DNA from: a virus
Reading direction: 5' to 3' (one strand)
DNA length: 14,426 nt
UHGV virus genome: UHGV-0061697
Numbering within the stretch: position 1 is the stretch's first letter; each line of letters starts with the position of its first letter. Position numbers and translations under genes: made by a program. This document shows positions 66 to 13,496 of this stretch, in pieces. Under the pieces are notes generated by a model. The model did no database searches. It was not told the origin of the DNA and was given only the letters and a program-made list of their open reading frames with translations.

Positions 66-1979
66 ATGAGCAAAGTAAAAATCGGTGAATTAATAAACTC
101 ACTTGTTAGCGATGTTGAGTCAATAGATAACTCTGACCGTCCTCAAGGGGAAAAAACAAAAAAAATAAAGGCTGTTGCATTAAAATTTAAAAATGCATTA
201 TTTAATGACAAGCGAAAGTTTAGGGGGAAAGGATTAGAAAAAAGAATTACAGCCAACACATTCAATGCCTATATGAGCAGGGCCAGAAAACGGTTTGATG
301 ATAAACTTCATCATAGCTTTGAAAAAAATATACATCGCCTATCTGAAAAGTATCCTTTATATAATGAGGAGCTATTGTCATGGCTTTCTCTACCTGCTGC
401 CGATATTCGCCAGAGAATGTCAGCTTTACAGGCAAAATTAAAATTAATTCTCCCTTTATCAGAAGATTTATCTAATATCAGAATTGGTGATAACAAAAGT
501 CATAATAAGTTATTAAAATTATCAAATAAATATAAAGAGTGGCAATTCGCCATATCTGATTTAACTAGCGATAACTGGAAAGATAAGCGCGATTATTTAT
601 ATAAATTACTACAGCAAGGATCTGCCTTACTTGAGGAGTTGAATCAGCTAAAAGTTAACCATGAGATTCTCTATCATCTTCAACTAAGCCCTGCCGAACG
701 CGCATCTATCCAGCAACGATGGGCGGACGTTCTGCACAATAAGAAACGTAACGTGGTGGTCATTGATTACCCTAAATATATGCAAGCTATTTACGATATT
801 ATAAATAGCCCTGCTACATTAAATAATCTAAACACTCGTTCAGGTATGGCTCCTTTGGCATTTGCACTTGCAGCATTGTCAGGAAGACGAATGATTGAGA
901 TTATGTATCAAGGTACATTTACTGTTTCTGGTAAGTATACCGTTGATTTTTTAGGCCAAGCAAAAAAAAGAACTTCTGATGATATAACCAGAAAAATATA
1001 TACATTATGCGAAGCAAAAACATTTGTTTATTTAATAAATGTACTTCGCTCATGCCCAGCAGCATCTGATTTTGATGATGTCGTTAAAGGTTATGGAGAT
1101 AACGACACACGCTCTGAAAACGGACGGATTAATGCCATATTAGCAAAGGCTTTTAACCCGTGGGTTAAATCATTTTTCAAAGATGACCGCCGTGTTTATA
1201 AAGATAGTCGTGCTATTTATGCCCGTATTGCGTATGAAATGTTTTTCCGCGTAGATCCTCGTTGGAAAAACGTAGATGAGGATGTTTTCTTTATGGAAAT
1301 TTTAGGCCATGACGATGAAAACACTCAATTACACTATAAGCAATTCAAGCTGGCCAACTTCTCAAAGACATGGAGGCCAAATACTGGAAACGAAAATACC
1401 AGGCTGGAAGCATTGCAGCAGCTTGATGACGAAATGCCAGGATTCGCCAGAGGAGATGCCGGGGTTCGTCTGCATAACACAGTTAAGCAGCTGGTAGAGC
1501 AGGACCCCTCTATAAAAATCACGAACAGCACTCTAAGAGCATTCAAATTTAGCCCTACAATGATTAGTCGATACCTGGAATTTGCTGCTGATGCTCTGGG
1601 GCAATTTGTTGGCGAAAATGGACAATGGCAGCTGAAAATAGATTCTCCAGAAATCGTTATGCCTGACGAAGAAGAGCTGGAAGCAATACCTGAACAGACG
1701 GATGAATTATCAGAGGATGACGATCTGGATGACGACGAAATTGAGATAGAGGAAGAGGAAGAGGAAGAGGAAGAGGAAGAGGAAGAGAGCGTAGAAGAAC
1801 AGCAACCGCCCGCGCCTTCTTCACCTGTATCTAAGCCGGTATTTAAGCCCGTGAGAAATATTGGTGATGGCTCATACGTTGTTGAGTTTCATTATAATGG
1901 CCAGAATTATGCTTGGTCCGGCATTGCAAACAGCCCTATATCAGCAATGCAGTTAGCATGGCTGACATATTTCGGATAA
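66..1979 (+). CDS. telN: Protelomerase (telomere resolvase) TelN, 637 aa
   Basis: Full-length ORF from track. N-terminus MSKVKIGELIN...RPQGEKTKKIKA...NALFNDKRKFRGKGLEKRITANTFNAYMSRARKRFDDKLHHSF and the C-terminal half (...RVYKDSRAIYARIAYEMFFRVDPRWKNVDEDVFFMEILGHDDENTQLHYKQFKLANF...) match my memory of phage N15 TelN almost residue for residue. Length is about that of N15 TelN (about 630 aa). GGAG RBS upstream. Identity is from recall, not a database search. Confidence 0.9.
   Translation: MSKVKIGELINSLVSDVESIDNSDRPQGEKTKKIKAVALKFKNALFNDKRKFRGKGLEKRITANTFNAYMSRARKRFDDKLHHSFEKNIHRLSEKYPLYNEELLSWLSLPAADIRQRMSALQAKLKLILPLSEDLSNIRIGDNKSHNKLLKLSNKYKEWQFAISDLTSDNWKDKRDYLYKLLQQGSALLEELNQLKVNHEILYHLQLSPAERASIQQRWADVLHNKKRNVVVIDYPKYMQAIYDIINSPATLNNLNTRSGMAPLAFALAALSGRRMIEIMYQGTFTVSGKYTVDFLGQAKKRTSDDITRKIYTLCEAKTFVYLINVLRSCPAASDFDDVVKGYGDNDTRSENGRINAILAKAFNPWVKSFFKDDRRVYKDSRAIYARIAYEMFFRVDPRWKNVDEDVFFMEILGHDDENTQLHYKQFKLANFSKTWRPNTGNENTRLEALQQLDDEMPGFARGDAGVRLHNTVKQLVEQDPSIKITNSTLRAFKFSPTMISRYLEFAADALGQFVGENGQWQLKIDSPEIVMPDEEELEAIPEQTDELSEDDDLDDDEIEIEEEEEEEEEEEEESVEEQQPPAPSSPVSKPVFKPVRNIGDGSYVVEFHYNGQNYAWSGIANSPISAMQLAWLTYFG
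1749..1787. repeat. Tandem hexanucleotide repeat (GAGGAA)x6 plus partial unit inside telN, encoding a poly-Glu tract (13 E)
   Basis: Directly visible: gaggaa repeated six times from 1749 to 1784, then gag. In frame, so slippage would change tract length by two Glu per unit. Confidence 0.95.
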
Positions 1980-2107
1980 AGCATGGCCGTAGAATCAATA
2001 CCCGCCGCCATACACACATCAGATGCAACAAACCACGGTTCGCCGTTAATCATCACTACACGAACCTGATGCTCTTCCTGAAAGGAAAATACTGCTAACG
2101 CGCTCAT
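1907..2107 (-). CDS. Short BRO-N-like antirepressor N-terminal fragment (66 aa), possibly a truncated antB-like gene
   Basis: The N-terminus MSALAVFSFQEEHQVRVVMINGEPWFVASDVC resembles the start of BRO-N/antirepressor domains (F-x-F...VR...I-x-GEPWFVA-x-DVC). The ORF ends after 66 aa and its last 73 nt lie on the opposite strand of the telN 3' end. The ATG overlaps the stop of the upstream gene (ATGA). Confidence 0.45.
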   Translation of the reverse strand: MSALAVFSFQEEHQVRVVMINGEPWFVASDVCMAAGIDSTAMLYPKYVSHANCIADIGLFAMPDQA

Positions 2108-2337
2108 TCAGCCTCCTTATCGTGCAGCAATTGCGACGAGAGCGATGCTGAATAACCCTGTGCTTCGTGTGTGAGCTCACACGCAATTTGAAGAAGTTTC
2201 CCTGCTTCTGAGAGATAAATCGACGCCTCACAACTGGAGATTGTCCGATGGGCTGATGATACGAGCGCATAGACCTGAGCCAGACGTTCATCCAACGATT
2301 CCAGCAGGCCAACAGTGTTCATTTTTACCTGATTCAT
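2104..2337 (-). CDS. Hypothetical 77-aa protein, middle gene of the immA-like operon (antA-like by position)
   Basis: ORF from track (MNQVKMNTVGLLESLDERLAQVYALV...). Start and stop both form ATGA overlaps with neighbours (icd-like upstream, BRO-N fragment downstream). The antA assignment is positional inference only. Confidence 0.45.
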   Translation of the reverse strand: MNQVKMNTVGLLESLDERLAQVYALVSSAHRTISSCEASIYLSEAGKLLQIACELTHEAQGYSASLSSQLLHDKEAE

Positions 2338-2498
2338 GCAGCCACCTCGCGCACCGGAATACGGGCAGACAATACCAGGACAAACCGGCTGGCGAACTGG
2401 CGACGAGCTTCCCGTTCAGATGACGCGATGGTGGAAAGATGATGGATGTGTGACTTTTTGTCTGTGCGAACGATTGCCGCAAATTTGAATTTGAACAT
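2334..2498 (-). CDS. icd: Icd-like small protein (cell-division inhibitor family of P1/N15 anti-immunity operons), 54 aa
   Basis: Not in the ORF track as such; I derived it by translating the minus strand from the ATG at 2498..2496, which has a GGAG about 8 nt upstream: MFKFKFAAIVRTDKKSHIHHLSTIASSEREARRQFASRFVLVLSARIPVREVAA. The S-E-R-E-A-R-R core and L-x-L-S-A-R-I-P-V tail match my memory of Icd-like proteins. Stop overlaps the next ATG. Confidence 0.55.
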   Translation of the reverse strand: MFKFKFAAIVRTDKKSHIHHLSTIASSEREARRQFASRFVLVLSARIPVREVAA

Positions 2499-2549
2499 GG
2501 TATGCACTCCGTTTAATTGGTCGTGCTACCACCAGAGTTCCTACGCTCT

Positions 2550-2632
2550 ATATGGCGGTAGCCCAGACGGGGGTAGGAATACCGGTAAACGAAGAAACCG
2601 GCCAGCTAAAAGCTGCCCCATCTGAGCCACCA
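2550..2632 (-). ncRNA. Candidate c4/CA-like antisense immunity RNA in the leader of the icd operon (boundaries approximate)
   Basis: About 370 nt of non-coding leader upstream of icd on the minus strand. It contains stable hairpins (CCGGU-N10-ACCGG, CAGCU-UUU-AGCUG), a tRNA-like 5' segment (GGUGGCUCAGAUGG), and an element UUCCUACC complementary to two identical copies of GTTCCTACGC (plus strand 2538-2547 and 2704-2713) that flank it. This arrangement recalls the P4 CI and P1 c4 systems. Ends were not determined. Confidence 0.3.
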
Positions 2633-2796
2633 TAAATTTGGTGTACGCAGATTTTACACACAAAAAAACACGCTGGCGCGTGTTGTGCGCTTCATTTACT
2701 CGGGTTCCTACGCCCGGCTACGGGATTTACCGTAGCGGAGTAAACTTTACCGTCAAAACGACGCGCACGTCAATAATTTGCAAAGACATTTTACCC

Positions 2797-2810
2797 CGTG
2801 ACCAGTCACG
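2797..2810. repeat. 14-bp palindromic motif CGTGACCAGTCACG (copy 1 of 3; extended palindrome ccccgtgaccagtcacgggg 2794-2813)
   Basis: Exact 14-mer, the reverse complement of the copies at 7477-7490 and 13483-13496. Lies in the intergenic region between the 103-aa gene and the immA leader; a T-run follows on the plus strand (gtgttttta). Confidence 0.5.
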
Positions 2811-2874
2811 GGGACAGGTGTTTTTATAATTTGCTTGAACGAGTGATCAGAAGTTGATCGTTAATCAAAGGCCA

Positions 2875-3183
2875 TTACTGATTAAGAGATTGGAAATACC
2901 TAACTAACTTACCGGCATCATCACATTTTTCTTTATCTTCGTTCTTAACATAGCCGCGACAAAAGGCTGAATAAAATTTTGCATTTTCAGAAGCAAAAGC
3001 AGCCGTCGAAAGGAGCAGCTCTTTGCATGACTCTTTTGATGCAGCATCGGGATTATTTTTACATGCAAGCTCCGCTGATGAGTTAATAACAGAAATGCTA
3101 TCTTCCTGGGCATAAACCGCAGCAGAAAAGGCAAAACATAAAACAAAAATAAAACTCTTCACTTTATCTCCTGTAACAGTCAT
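2875..3183 (-). CDS. Small secreted Cys-containing protein (about 102 aa, predicted signal peptide)
   Basis: ORF from track. N-terminus MTVTGDKVKSFIFVLCFAFSAAVYA-QEDS has the n/h/c layout of a Sec signal peptide with an AxA-like cleavage site. Mature part has 4 Cys. No lipobox. ATG at 3183 preferred over GTG at 3186. Confidence 0.5.
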   Translation of the reverse strand: MTVTGDKVKSFIFVLCFAFSAAVYAQEDSISVINSSAELACKNNPDAASKESCKELLLSTAAFASENAKFYSAFCRGYVKNEDKEKCDDAGKLVRYFQSLNQ

Positions 3184-3189
3184 CACAAT

Positions 3190-3585
3190 TCAATCAACTT
3201 TTTTAGCATCAGCCATACGATTCAACCAGGAATCAACAATCGGTTGCTCATCTACAGAATGTTTACCAGGTATAACTCGCCAGCTATCTTGCGAAAATCT
3301 GCCGTACTTACGCGGGAATAGGCCTTTCTTTATCTCCCGCCATGTACTAGGAAAACCATCCACAAAAGTACCAATTAACAGGAGAGGGACAAAAATCAGA
3401 GCTACAAACCATTGCGCAAGAAAGTGTTCAACAACAACATTTTCACCGTTGTAGTAATACGCATACGCATCCAATATGCGAATTTTCCTTACCTTAAAAA
3501 TAGCCTTATGCTGAGAACGACTTAACTTGATACGAATGTATCCCTTATCCAAAGGGGATTCGTATTTGTATGATTGAACAGCCAT
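3190..3585 (-). CDS. Hypothetical membrane protein (about 131 aa, one predicted TM helix)
   Basis: ORF from track, start moved to the ATG at 3585 (2 nt after the upstream stop). Hydrophobic segment FLAQWFVALIFVPLLLIGTFV. No recognisable family. Confidence 0.5.
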   Translation of the reverse strand: MAVQSYKYESPLDKGYIRIKLSRSQHKAIFKVRKIRILDAYAYYYNGENVVVEHFLAQWFVALIFVPLLLIGTFVDGFPSTWREIKKGLFPRKYGRFSQDSWRVIPGKHSVDEQPIVDSWLNRMADAKKVD

Positions 3586-7100: not shown

Positions 7101-8098
7101 TTCCGGTCATTATCCAGTGCGCAGGTGATTTTTGCCGCCGGGTACATGTTTACCAGTTGTTCCACAACATGAACCATGTTGTTAGCGGATACAGCGACAA
7201 CCACAGCGTCAAAGCGTTTATCTTTTTTCGTGGCAAGCCAGATGGATGCACCAGTAGCAAAACCTTCTGTAACAGCGATGTTTTGCGCCCCTTTCAGCTC
7301 ACCGATAACAAAGCAGGCACCGACGAAATCGCCGCTGGTTACTGCGCTGGTCTGGTATTTCCCACCTTGTTTGTCGATTCGCTGCCAACCCACAATACGA
7401 CCATCATAACGACCGTCCAGGTGAGCCAGAGGGATAGCCATATATGTGGTTGGCCCCCGGCTCCATTTCGCACTGTCGTGACTGGTCACGCGACGCACAT
7501 CACATGAACTAAAAACGTCACGAATACCTTTTTTAATCGCATATGGCCATGAGCCGTCTTCAGCCTGAGCATGTTCCCACGCGCTGTGGAATGCCAGCCA
7601 TCCCAGCAAACGTTCATGGTCCATTTGGTTGTTTTTCAGGTCATTAATTCGTTTTTGTTCTTCACGGCGACGACGTGCTTCGGCCTGACGTTCTATTCTT
7701 TCCCGTTCTTCTTCCGGTTGTGCGACCACGGTCGCATTATTCCGTTGTTGCTCACGGCGATATTCAGAAAACAGGAAGGAGAAACCGCTCCATGAGCCAG
7801 CATCGCTGCCTTTATGGACGAAGTTAATGAACGGGTAATCAATCCCTTTGCTGTGTTCCAGCCTGGAGTAAATTTCTACGCGTCCTTTCAGGCTCTTTTC
7901 GAGAGCTTCTGGAGATGTTTTATTGTATGAAGAGTAACGCTCAACCCCCCCGCGAGGGTTGAGTTGGATGTTGTCGGAACAGGCAGGCCAGTTGATACCA
8001 GCCATCTGTGCCAGCTCGGTTAGTTCATCCCGTGCTGCTTCAATTAGCGAGAACGGATCGCTGCCAAAGCGATCCGCATAGAAATCGTTTAATGTCAT
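4103..8098 (-). CDS. repA: Replication protein RepA (multidomain primase-helicase, P4 alpha / N15 RepA family), 1331 aa
   Basis: Single 1331-aa ORF; N15 RepA is about 1320 aa. Walker A motif GMGSGKST is present (RAGMGSGKSTGLL). Position between the immA-like operon and cB matches N15 organisation. Recognition is from memory, not search. Confidence 0.88.
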   Translation of the reverse strand: MTLNDFYADRFGSDPFSLIEAARDELTELAQMAGINWPACSDNIQLNPRGGVERYSSYNKTSPEALEKSLKGRVEIYSRLEHSKGIDYPFINFVHKGSDAGSWSGFSFLFSEYRREQQRNNATVVAQPEEERERIERQAEARRRREEQKRINDLKNNQMDHERLLGWLAFHSAWEHAQAEDGSWPYAIKKGIRDVFSSCDVRRVTSHDSAKWSRGPTTYMAIPLAHLDGRYDGRIVGWQRIDKQGGKYQTSAVTSGDFVGACFVIGELKGAQNIAVTEGFATGASIWLATKKDKRFDAVVVAVSANNMVHVVEQLVNMYPAAKITCALDNDRKSATEGKGNTGLRTGYEILSKFNDVRCVYPTFEDDPQMECSDFNDLHKLRGLRETARQLFATANRLKTGTDLLSLTLNRLKTIKRDNRRTFAKELLRAVDIGMLTCPVPNSPSDLFNMFCIVLREMGLENIYRATVKDHIARRLNKKCRIAQAPRSFSERITDPNKRPQHITYKRFETSVMTDDVLKYVQSLQGIVIVRAGMGSGKSTGLLRPLMHSSERGISVAHRVSLIGGLWEMMTEGKGVKADILHYQDPGYQEMAPYASKLTICINSIVKNCWQPLMRQHDYFGFDEATQGLRAVLSGRAMENPVAVFNTLIDALARTEQHPIMVDADANDLLVDLAELAMKRREELGLPAWLQIHVIELPVDVRNRETGEPIRVFYTEKDRIMTEVVKAVSDGEKIMLATDSSTFAEDVTATLRMHFPGKKFLCVNQKNKPEPEVEAFTNQPKKMVKKYDGLIYSPSISSGVSIEQKHFDRHFGMFCGEVVPSDAVQMLRRDRTAKEFIIGFDKARAKRETDPQKIERAFAQALLATAGMNGELTDVVFDGDRISMGVANTDFTRMKIKAAAIEATARNDYASNMICIMHSDGYKVSPLATDYAANDIGKDLRKEARDIVWEQTLDLHLNTETPQESEREELLKKRALTLEEQAKLVRWDIENELKLPVEEGTLKFYFDGARDKVRRYETMLLDEVTARRYDREEAAINFTYAYRQAGQWQYFVVTAMTREQADDVFKTKFPGIIDHKVKATPTVEVGARGFYALKSATLRQYFIDCGINPETMTGEATQERLKFARDNLMTAERRDLLNNVLHIGGFMTPKGKPKVPEALFKNICDSLGLKTGKRRGRDGDKRPTLRFVEPESAAFMLDILVQRQKDGLTLKTRKAEKTAIEMDRDLDLNIYMDDKTRSTNEQVQNAPHSVISEALAVLPVAVPESWAMSALSSEELATMSSWSSASIAMTFASLYLTEFMDHLSSNELRRLREYITGNSSCSYEEQGAFYG
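4384..4434. other. Candidate internal replication-origin element inside the 3' end of repA: 9-bp inverted repeat TGGATCGCG / CGCGATCCA around an AT-rich spacer with (AT)5 and three GATC sites
   Basis: Read directly: tggatcgcg (4384-4392) and cgcgatcca (4426-4434) flank ttttatcatccatatatatattgagatccaaat. N15-type replicons are reported to carry ori within the 3' part of repA (established knowledge). The function here is inferred. Confidence 0.3.
7477..7490. repeat. 14-bp palindromic motif CGTGACTGGTCACG (copy 2 of 3), inside the repA coding sequence
   Basis: Exact 14-mer identical to 13483-13496 and reverse complement of 2797-2810. Confidence 0.5.
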
Positions 8099-13262: not shown

Positions 13263-13487
13263 ATGTTGGGGGAAATTTGTGTATTGCGTAGACCAGGGCG
13301 AGTTCCATATTCGGAGAACGAAGTCATTGGTTTGCTGATCAGGAAAAACTATAAGGAGCTGCAGAAGCAGCTATCTACTACTTGCCCGCGATGTGGTCAA
13401 AAAATGCCTGTTTCAGAATGCATTTTTGATGGCGAAGGGTCATGCCACCTTACAACCACGAGGCTGAAACTTGCGCTCAAAGCGTGA
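13263..13487 (+). CDS. Hypothetical small Cys-containing protein (74 aa; CPRCG...C...CH); possibly the 3' part of a disrupted gene
   Basis: ORF from track. No Shine-Dalgarno before the ATG, whereas a strong AGGAGG precedes a 16-codon ORF (13195-13245) in another frame just upstream. Confidence 0.35.
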   Translation: MLGEICVLRRPGRVPYSENEVIGLLIRKNYKELQKQLSTTCPRCGQKMPVSECIFDGEGSCHLTTTRLKLALKA

Positions 13488-13496
13488 CTGGTCACG
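13483..13496. repeat. 14-bp palindromic motif CGTGACTGGTCACG (copy 3 of 3), spanning the stop of the 74-aa ORF and abutting the RBS of the next gene
   Basis: Exact 14-mer read directly. Confidence 0.5.

Follow-up and report, generated by a model that had tools for sequence, protein, structure and literature searches.

What does the leader of an icd operon do if it codes for nothing? We asked this of the virus genome UHGV-0061697, of which a stretch of 14,426 nucleotides (nt), here called the window, was analysed. Upstream of an icd-like gene lies a leader that a sequence-only reading, made from the letters alone, had described as non-coding, rich in hairpins and carrying two identical 10-mers on either side of a short complementary element. 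That reading suggested control by an antisense RNA with the topology of the P1 c4 and P4 seqA/seqB/seqC systems. The topology was borne out by a match to the Rfam C4 model, by similarity to N15 and P4, by the layout of the P1 locus, and by three-way covariation in 42 leaders. We conclude that the leader is very probably the control region of an anti-immunity icd-antA-antB' operon, and that it acts through a C4-type antisense RNA. The element is a copy of the well-known P1 c4, N15 CA and P4 CI type of control element and is in that sense already known. The icd operon, its leader and all of the RNA elements lie on the minus strand.

A C4-type RNA in the leader of icd

The Rfam C4 model (RF01695) matched the minus strand at 2551..2637 over its entire length (model positions 1-87 of 87; 73.6 bits vs a gathering cut-off of 45, E 4e-13), marking the gene of a C4/CA antisense RNA. 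A minus-strand RNA of 70-90 nt had been predicted at about 2550-2640, and the model, placed at 2637..2551, agrees with this almost to the base. The RNA has a minimum free energy (MFE) of -44.4 kcal/mol (z = -5.6) and is built from a closing stem (2632..2616 with 2572..2556), a first hairpin, a second hairpin with the loop UUUCUUCGUUUA, an unpaired stretch AUUCCUAC and a 3' CCA, which stands at 2555..2553 just beyond the closing stem. Taking its ends from the annotated 77-nt c4 RNA of P1, we predict that the mature C4 RNA spans 2631..2554 and is 78 nt long. A weak Rfam match to DAOA-AS1_2 (E 0.65) was treated as noise.

Upstream of C4, the isrK model (RF01394) gave a full-length match on the minus strand at 2736..2663 (62.5 bits vs a cut-off of 50). 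An isrK match followed by a C4 match was also present in N15, PhiR46_1, YDC107_1, NAR688, KpLi5, phiKO2, Kpn74, PY54 and P4, and in the leader of P1 Rfam placed C4, c4-a1b1 and a sub-threshold isrK. The description of the leader as hairpin-rich proved apt: 321 nt of the minus strand fold at -123.9 kcal/mol (z = -6.4), and none of 100 shuffles folded as well. Its length had been given as 370 nt, and this figure did not hold, as the transcribed part is about 240 nt (from a predicted start near 2736 to the icd ATG at 2498) and 2737-2870 comprises the promoter and an upstream spacer.

The identities of matching records, the similarity to N15 and phiKO2 and the Pfam content indicate that the window belongs to a linear phage-plasmid of E. 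coli that resembles N15. Over 901 bases around the leader, identity to six linear or plasmid E. coli records of 27-51 kb is 99.3-99.6%. The closest of these carries genes for a protelomerase, a CyRepA1 replication protein, an Icd-like protein and a BRO-N protein, and has no RNA gene annotated in the leader stretch. Identity to phage N15 is 76.9% at the nucleotide level across 78% of the 901-nt query, covering leader and icd, and identity to phiKO2 and other Klebsiella telomere phages is 73-76%. Within the window, Pfam identified four protelomerase (TelK) domains in the open reading frame (ORF) at 66-1979, a helix-turn-helix/S24 CB-like repressor and a Q antiterminator. Judged by sequence and synteny, the leader region is the homologue of the N15 immA secondary immunity locus (cA-icd-antA-antB). 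The order of N15 genes 29-33 (telN, antB, antA, icd and cA, with terminator and promoter) is the same, and an early N15 record labels the homologous locus 'cA: secondary immunity repressor'. Both replicons are linear phage-plasmids with protelomerase, RepA, CB and Q, they share the gene order next to telN, and both have an isrK-type leader, a terminator and a C4 RNA.

Matched sites and their covariation

We named the elements after the P1 record, in which case the two 10-mers are a1 and a2, their complement is a', and a second set comprises b1, b' and b2. The 10-mer GTTCCTACGC (plus strand) occurs in exactly two copies, as had been claimed; the second copy is at 2704-2713 as reported, and the first is at 2537-2546, one base off the earlier 2538-2547. 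The complementary element, GTAGGAA on the plus strand, was found at 2573-2579, inside the interval 2573-2580 previously assigned to it. On the RNA, a1 (GCGUAGGAAC, 2713..2704, with the core GUAGGAA at 2711..2705) is held in the 8-nt loop CGUAGGAA of leader hairpin 2 (2701..2716), which is supported by model alignments, by the MFE fold and by the position of the P1 a1 in the same loop. It follows leader hairpin 1 (2717..2736, GCUACGG-UAAAUC-CCGUAGC), seen in the isrK and c4-a1b1 model alignments and in the MFE fold. The a' element (UUCCUAC, 2573..2579) lies in the unpaired RNA that links C4 hairpin 2 to the closing stem. The a2 site (2546..2537, core GUAGGAA at 2544..2538) forms 7 bp with a' (2579..2573) and occupies the 8-nt loop of a small predicted hairpin at 2533..2550 (UAGAG-CGUAGGAA-CUCUG), for which support from covariation is weak.

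A complementarity of about 7 nt had been noted, and this is right for the a set but not for the interaction as a whole, since the longer b set had been overlooked. The b' element (CUUCGUUUAC, 2585..2594) lies within the 12-nt loop of C4 hairpin 2. Its upstream partner b1 (GUAAAUGAAG, 2690..2699) is single-stranded, sits just 3' of the a1 hairpin, where P1 has its annotated b1, and can form 10 bp, including one G-U, with the hairpin-2 loop. Downstream, b2 (UUAAACGGAG, 2507..2516) forms 9 bp with b' (2515..2507), again including one G-U. The worry over an interaction of only 7 nt is gone, because the a and b sets together give the C4 core (2595..2570) a near-continuous duplex with 2716..2689, at -30.7 kcal/mol, which none of 2000 shuffled targets equalled, and a split duplex with 2545..2506, at -23.0 kcal/mol, which 11 of 2000 shuffles equalled. 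In the MFE fold of the whole leader, a1-b1 is paired in cis with b'-a'. A repeat search also recovered longer imperfect inverted repeats, one joining 2565-2594 with 2690-2719 (30 nt, 77%) and another joining 2531-2544 with 2573-2586.

Could the repeats have arisen by chance, or could they be DNA operator sites for a protein? The complementarity first noted was short (7 nt), and some exact 10-mer direct repeat was present in 997 of 20000 dinucleotide-preserving shuffles of 2499-2870 (5%), both of which leave room for this explanation. However, a 10-mer repeat with a 7-nt complement between its copies was seen in only 48 of the 20000 shuffles (0.24%), and the sites coincide with loops and other unpaired positions of an RNA fold that covaries. 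Decisive evidence came from comparison of homologous loci. We drew on 9 annotated phage loci and on 48 loci from IMG/VR with a gene for an Icd relative, dropped one that did not align (L059) and added P4, which yielded 42 distinct leaders and 32 distinct element haplotypes. The a elements fall into five types (GUAGGAA, UCUCAAC, UCGCAA, GUGAGAA and UUGGAAC), and a1, a' and a2 match one another in 42 of 42 leaders, with a minimum Watson-Crick run of 7. Conservation of the repeats in homologous loci had been proposed as a check, and it is seen in its strongest form: the sites covary instead of keeping one sequence. It is this covariation that refutes an origin by chance or as operator sites, which we reject as extremely improbable.

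The b sites also change together across the 42 leaders, with 14 different b' loops and at least 8 b types. Cognate pairings were consistently favoured over non-cognate ones in duplex energy: -9.05 vs -1.12 kcal/mol for a'-a1, -8.0 vs -0.4 kcal/mol for a'-a2, -11.8 vs -6.8 kcal/mol for b'-b1 and -9.8 vs -5.8 kcal/mol for b'-b2. An alignment of 31 distinct sequences over C4 and the downstream region allowed 34 pairs to be counted, 27 in the fold and 7 in the a'-a2 helix. Over these, 99.9% of cells were paired, and 13 of the 34 pairs had changed on both sides, 8 of them in the fold proper. The intermolecular a'-a2 helix was 100% paired with compensatory changes at 5 of its 7 pairs. None of 500 shuffles did as well, and controls in which the pairing was slid out of register were 29-48% paired. 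We regard the elements, their positions, the fold and the three-way covariation as established. A different hairpin, made by pairing the 3' side of the C4 closing stem with the downstream sequence GGUGGUAGC so that a2 falls in the loop, was considered as a possibility and not taken as part of the element; it is 98.3% paired, with only 4 compensatory changes, each in one sequence (phiKO2, P4).

An additional explanation is that the locus encodes a small repressor protein and that the repeats are incidental. Coding sequences (CDS) have in fact been called over the C4 homologue in N15 (U63086, AF064539), P4 (cI, 137 amino acids (aa)), phiKO2, KpLi5 and some RefSeq E. coli plasmids. Yet the ORF that starts at a conserved AUG inside C4 has no conserved reading frame: among 41 homologues it ranges from 15 to 49 codons and shifts frame, and, counted modulo 3, all three spacings to the icd ATG occur. 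The ORF of the window ends within a2. This variation in frame and length agrees with the earlier description of the leader as non-coding. Substitutions follow RNA pairing and not codons, and the title of the N15 study (Ravin 1999, as cited in PMC4488713) states that immA is controlled 'by a small processed RNA'. We therefore reject a protein product as highly improbable, and the CDS features drawn over C4 homologues are probably miscalled RNA genes.

The a and b elements appear to combine independently of each other. There are 21 a/b combinations in the 32 haplotypes, and for two a types and two b types all four combinations are present; the six sites nonetheless stay interleaved, a1 b1 then b' a' then a2 b2, despite this reassortment of modules. 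A tentative reading for N15-like phage-plasmids and P4-like satellites, which we consider possible but rather unlikely, is a two-module specificity code in which an a and a b module, each with three matched sites, reassort freely and the short terminated leader RNA serves as a sponge that sets the threshold of the switch. If true, this would imply that diversifying selection favours private specificities of secondary immunity. Partial cross-talk would also be expected between elements with one module in common, such as P4 and the phage-plasmids of its a type (GUGAGAA, with UUCUCAC as a'), which P4 shares with several N15-like phage-plasmids of Klebsiella and E. coli. The free reassortment of interleaved modules is the one mildly new observation.

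For P1 and P7, short complementary elements that set specificity are the basis of heteroimmunity (PMC12197685). The a' of the window, UUCCUAC, is common to phiKO2, PY54 and KpLi5, and its b', CUUCGUUUA, to NAR688 and PhiR46_1. N15, in contrast, has GUUGAGA as a' and CUUCUUGUA as b'. Because both modules differ, the window is predicted to be heteroimmune to N15 at this locus, and the two should not cross-repress. More generally, mutual exclusion of antirepressors among N15-like plasmids should be predictable from the a' and b' sequences. The 42-leader set is also a clean natural example of three-way RNA-RNA covariation and could be used for testing predictors of RNA-RNA interaction.

Proposed expression of the operon and output of the pairing

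The b set was not the only part missing from the earlier list of elements, which also overlooked a promoter and an intrinsic terminator between b1 and C4. The predicted sigma-70 promoter, equivalent to Pa, lies at 2744..2773 with a -35 hexamer TTGACG (2773..2768), an 18-nt spacer and a -10 hexamer TAAAGT (2749..2744). Transcription is predicted to start near G2736, which is 8 nt past the -10 and corresponds to isrK model position 1. In a consensus scan of 1900-3300 this was the sole match, weak alone as 2.3 are expected by chance, and the scan gave no candidate promoter between C4 and icd. The -35 hexamer is invariant in the 41 aligned N15-like leaders (the non-aligning L059 left out), nearly all of which have TAAAGT, TAGAGT or TACAGT as the -10. 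The terminator (2662..2684) was found by a terminator scan and consists of the stem-loop AACACGC-GCCA-GCGUGUU (2684..2667) and a U run. Its stem is the 3' hairpin of the isrK model, and a putative terminator is annotated at the same place in N15 and phiKO2. Its conservation right behind b1 extends over the aligned N15-like leaders and P4, where the stem covaries, and more weakly to P1. A 25-nt spacer separates it from C4.

These elements suggest the following scheme. The promoter at 2773..2744 would drive a transcript from near 2736, the first 75 nt of which would form two hairpins, with a1 in the loop of the second and b1 next to it. The terminator at 2684..2662 would halt many transcripts, leaving a short leader RNA of about 75 nt that would be the equivalent of IsrK. 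Transcripts that read through would carry the C4/CA RNA (2637..2551) with its long closing stem, two hairpins and tRNA-like CCA end, and by homology with P1 c4 this would be excised as a stable RNA of about 78 nt, with RNase P making the 5' end. The b' and a' elements of C4 would then pair on transcripts of the same operon, downstream with a2 and b2, and upstream with a1-b1 next to the terminator. Downstream pairing would block icd translation. As antA and antB' each start on the preceding stop codon, the antirepressor would therefore not be made, and the untranslated RNA would be exposed to premature termination. Upstream pairing would either bring about termination at the intrinsic terminator or titrate the antisense RNA. 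The predicted outcome is a prophage that silences its own antirepressor and that of an incoming phage with the same a/b specificity.

Which of these pairings matters most? Translational block at b2, with polarity on antA, is the best-supported output, because b2 lies on the Shine-Dalgarno sequence (SD), b2 covaries and the genes are coupled. Specifically, b2 includes the icd SD GGAG (2510..2507), 8 nt ahead of the AUG. The start of antA overlaps the stop of icd in an ATGA at 2337..2334, and this overlap suggests translational coupling of icd and antA; antB' has an ATGA overlap with the antA stop. In P1 and P7, c4 pairs around the ribosome-binding site and blocks translation of ant (PMC12197685). 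The P1 record annotates a1, b1, the 77-nt c4 RNA, a2, b2 and icd in this order, and attaches to a2 and b2 the note 'repression of icd ant translation'.

The same element could instead act mainly through transcription termination, a plausible minority view. CA RNA bound to nascent a1-b1 would cause termination at 2684..2662 or at Rho-dependent sites. Less CA RNA would then be made and fewer transcripts would run on into icd-antA, and the block of translation at b2 would be secondary. For N15, CA RNA is said to promote termination. The strongest and most continuous complementarity to C4 is indeed at a1-b1, ending a few nt ahead of the terminator stem, and it is there that the -30.7 kcal/mol duplex and the 30-nt inverted repeat are found. 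Both the conservation of the terminator after b1 and its annotation in N15 and phiKO2 fit as well. P4 provides the precedent, as its CI RNA is processed from the leader and pairs with seqA and seqC to give premature termination (PMC4825925). However, selection acts on the downstream pairing as well, as seen from the overlap of b2 with the icd SD and its covariation with b', and the fold of the short RNA shows no evident anti-terminator structure that C4 binding could remove. Termination at a1-b1 is compatible with translational block at b2 and does not exclude it. The a1-b1 region is the best binding site and abuts the terminator; it may drive termination, or it may serve as a decoy or an activator in the manner of Gifsy-1.

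The latter possibility points to a different wiring. In the isrK locus of Gifsy-1 (IsrK, STnc1160/orf45, anrP), IsrK has been called a structural homologue of seqA, and STnc1160, the RNA downstream of it, is processed from read-through transcripts (PMC4825925). By analogy, the 75-nt leader RNA 2736..2662 might work in trans as an anti-antisense RNA: by binding the a'/b' region, either in C4 or in the long transcript, it would switch icd-antA on, making an RNA toggle with a positive loop. We consider this doubtful. The window leader does match isrK in full length above the cut-off and has an antirepressor downstream, and in both loci one promoter (predicted in the window) would give a short terminated RNA and a read-through transcript. 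The pairing of a1-b1 with the C4-like region, predicted in the window as the cis a1-b1/b'-a' fold, is helix b-I of 'structure A' in Gifsy-1, where it was shown by mutation and compensation (PMC4825925). The icd start is, moreover, predicted to be sequestered by default in a hairpin at 2497..2532, in which GUGGUAGCAC pairs with GUGCAUACCAU. This hairpin was recovered in MFE folds and in the RNAalifold consensus of 23 sequences, and it hides part of the SD and the AU of the start codon, with b2 in its apical part; its covariation is weak, just 3 weakly compensatory pairs in those 23 sequences. The wiring differs in other respects, however. The short RNA of Gifsy-1 has been shown to activate translation of orf45, an ORF over the C4 homologue, in a locus that lacks icd. 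This ORF is not conserved in the relatives of the window, and in the window icd, whose own SD is masked, separates C4 from the antirepressor. In addition, the N15 cA locus is annotated as an immunity repressor and not as an activator.

Several points weigh against repression of the operon by C4 through the pairings proposed above. Because the predicted hairpin buries the icd start, the mRNA may be closed even without C4, and the default state of the icd mRNA may already be 'off', as it is at the isrK locus of Gifsy-1. Processing, translational block and termination are all carried over from homologous systems, and the promoter is a consensus match only. The c4-a1b1 model (RF03163) scored below its cut-off at 2749..2697 (34.3 vs 46.7 bits; 40-49 bits in homologues), with the isrK model covering the same hairpins above its own. 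Finally, with antB cut to 54 aa, the operon is partly decayed in this lineage.

Operon genes, related systems and flanking features

The first gene of the operon, the icd-like gene (2334..2498), encodes a 54-aa protein annotated in RefSeq as 'host cell division inhibitor Icd-like protein' (phrog_1743, E 5e-20). It is 92.6% identical to N15 Icd; a weak Pfam match to LtuB (18.8 vs 25 bits) was treated as noise. The antA-like antirepressor gene (2104..2337, 77 aa) matches phrog_10889 'anti-repressor' (E 1e-18), and its homologue in phiKO2 is annotated as 'similar to antirepressor N15 AntA'. The third gene, antB' (1943..2107, 54 aa), is a truncated antB that encodes only the start of a BRO-N domain, whereas the N15 antB product gp30 is 264 aa long. 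The end of antB' overlaps the 3' end of the convergent protelomerase gene. An equally short antB CDS of 165 nt is present in PhiR46_1, and the six 99%-identical E. coli records have a BRO-N gene annotated at the place of antB' (54 aa in the one examined).

Among related systems, the immI locus of P1 and P7 uses the same RNA family (RF01695, 68.8 bits in P1) in the same layout, with a1 in a hairpin loop, b1 next to it, a hairpin with a U run, c4, a2 immediately 3' and b2 on the icd SD. Regulator and targets share one transcript there, as they would in the window from the predicted promoter. The primary sequences are too diverged for blastn and tblastn from the window to have linked it to P1. 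Unlike P1 and P7, which have Ant1/Ant2, the window has a 77-aa AntA and a BRO-N fragment as its antirepressor. In addition, a C1 operator overlies one of the two c4 promoters of P1, and no equivalent was seen in the window; the P1 leader matches isrK below the cut-off, at 35 bits. The P4 CI immunity system is closer in sequence, with 77.5% identity over 109 nt of RNA (P4 cI), isrK and C4 matches of 60.8 and 74.9 bits, a and b elements in the same places and an Icd homologue (48% identical) after CI. It differs in that its operon consists of replication genes and its output is premature transcription termination (PMC4825925), and in a gap of 107 nt between terminator and CI vs 25 nt in the window. 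The element of the window would work like P4 immunity and is not P4-type, because the genes downstream are icd, antA and antB' and not the P4 replication (left) operon.

The CDS calls over the C4 homologue were located at 2745-3035 (L001), 413-715 (L002), 630-830 (L005), 495-629 (L007), 531-707 (L008) and 620-1036 (L011) of the collected loci, and in the RefSeq records H29-H37. They go by the names 'cA secondary immunity repressor', gp32, 'transcriptional repressor', a second 'Icd-like protein', the P4 'cI gene product' and 'ash family protein'. Such annotations could be corrected, and any Rfam-based annotation would label the element. The scientific gain is small, the element being a textbook phage RNA regulator.

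A 14-bp perfect palindrome, CGTGACTGGTCACG, occurs in three exact copies in the window: at 2797-2810, 24 nt upstream of the Pa -35; at 7477-7490, inside the repA ORF; and at 13483-13496, near 13.5 kb. Even with 3 mismatches allowed, only 0.66 matches are expected. The copy upstream of Pa is kept in N15 and in some 30 further N15-like loci. As its outer stem shows no covariation, it looks like a candidate protein-binding DNA site and not like a terminator. Identity with the N15 SopB centromere sites IR1-4 was considered and dropped, as the published sequence of those sites, GTGCGACCNNGGTCGCAC, differs (PMC7205306). Just upstream of the promoter, at 2875-3162 on the minus strand, lies a gene for a 95-aa protein without a Pfam family (phrog_26765, unknown function), a homologue of which is called 'Spackle exclusion protein' in one phage record.

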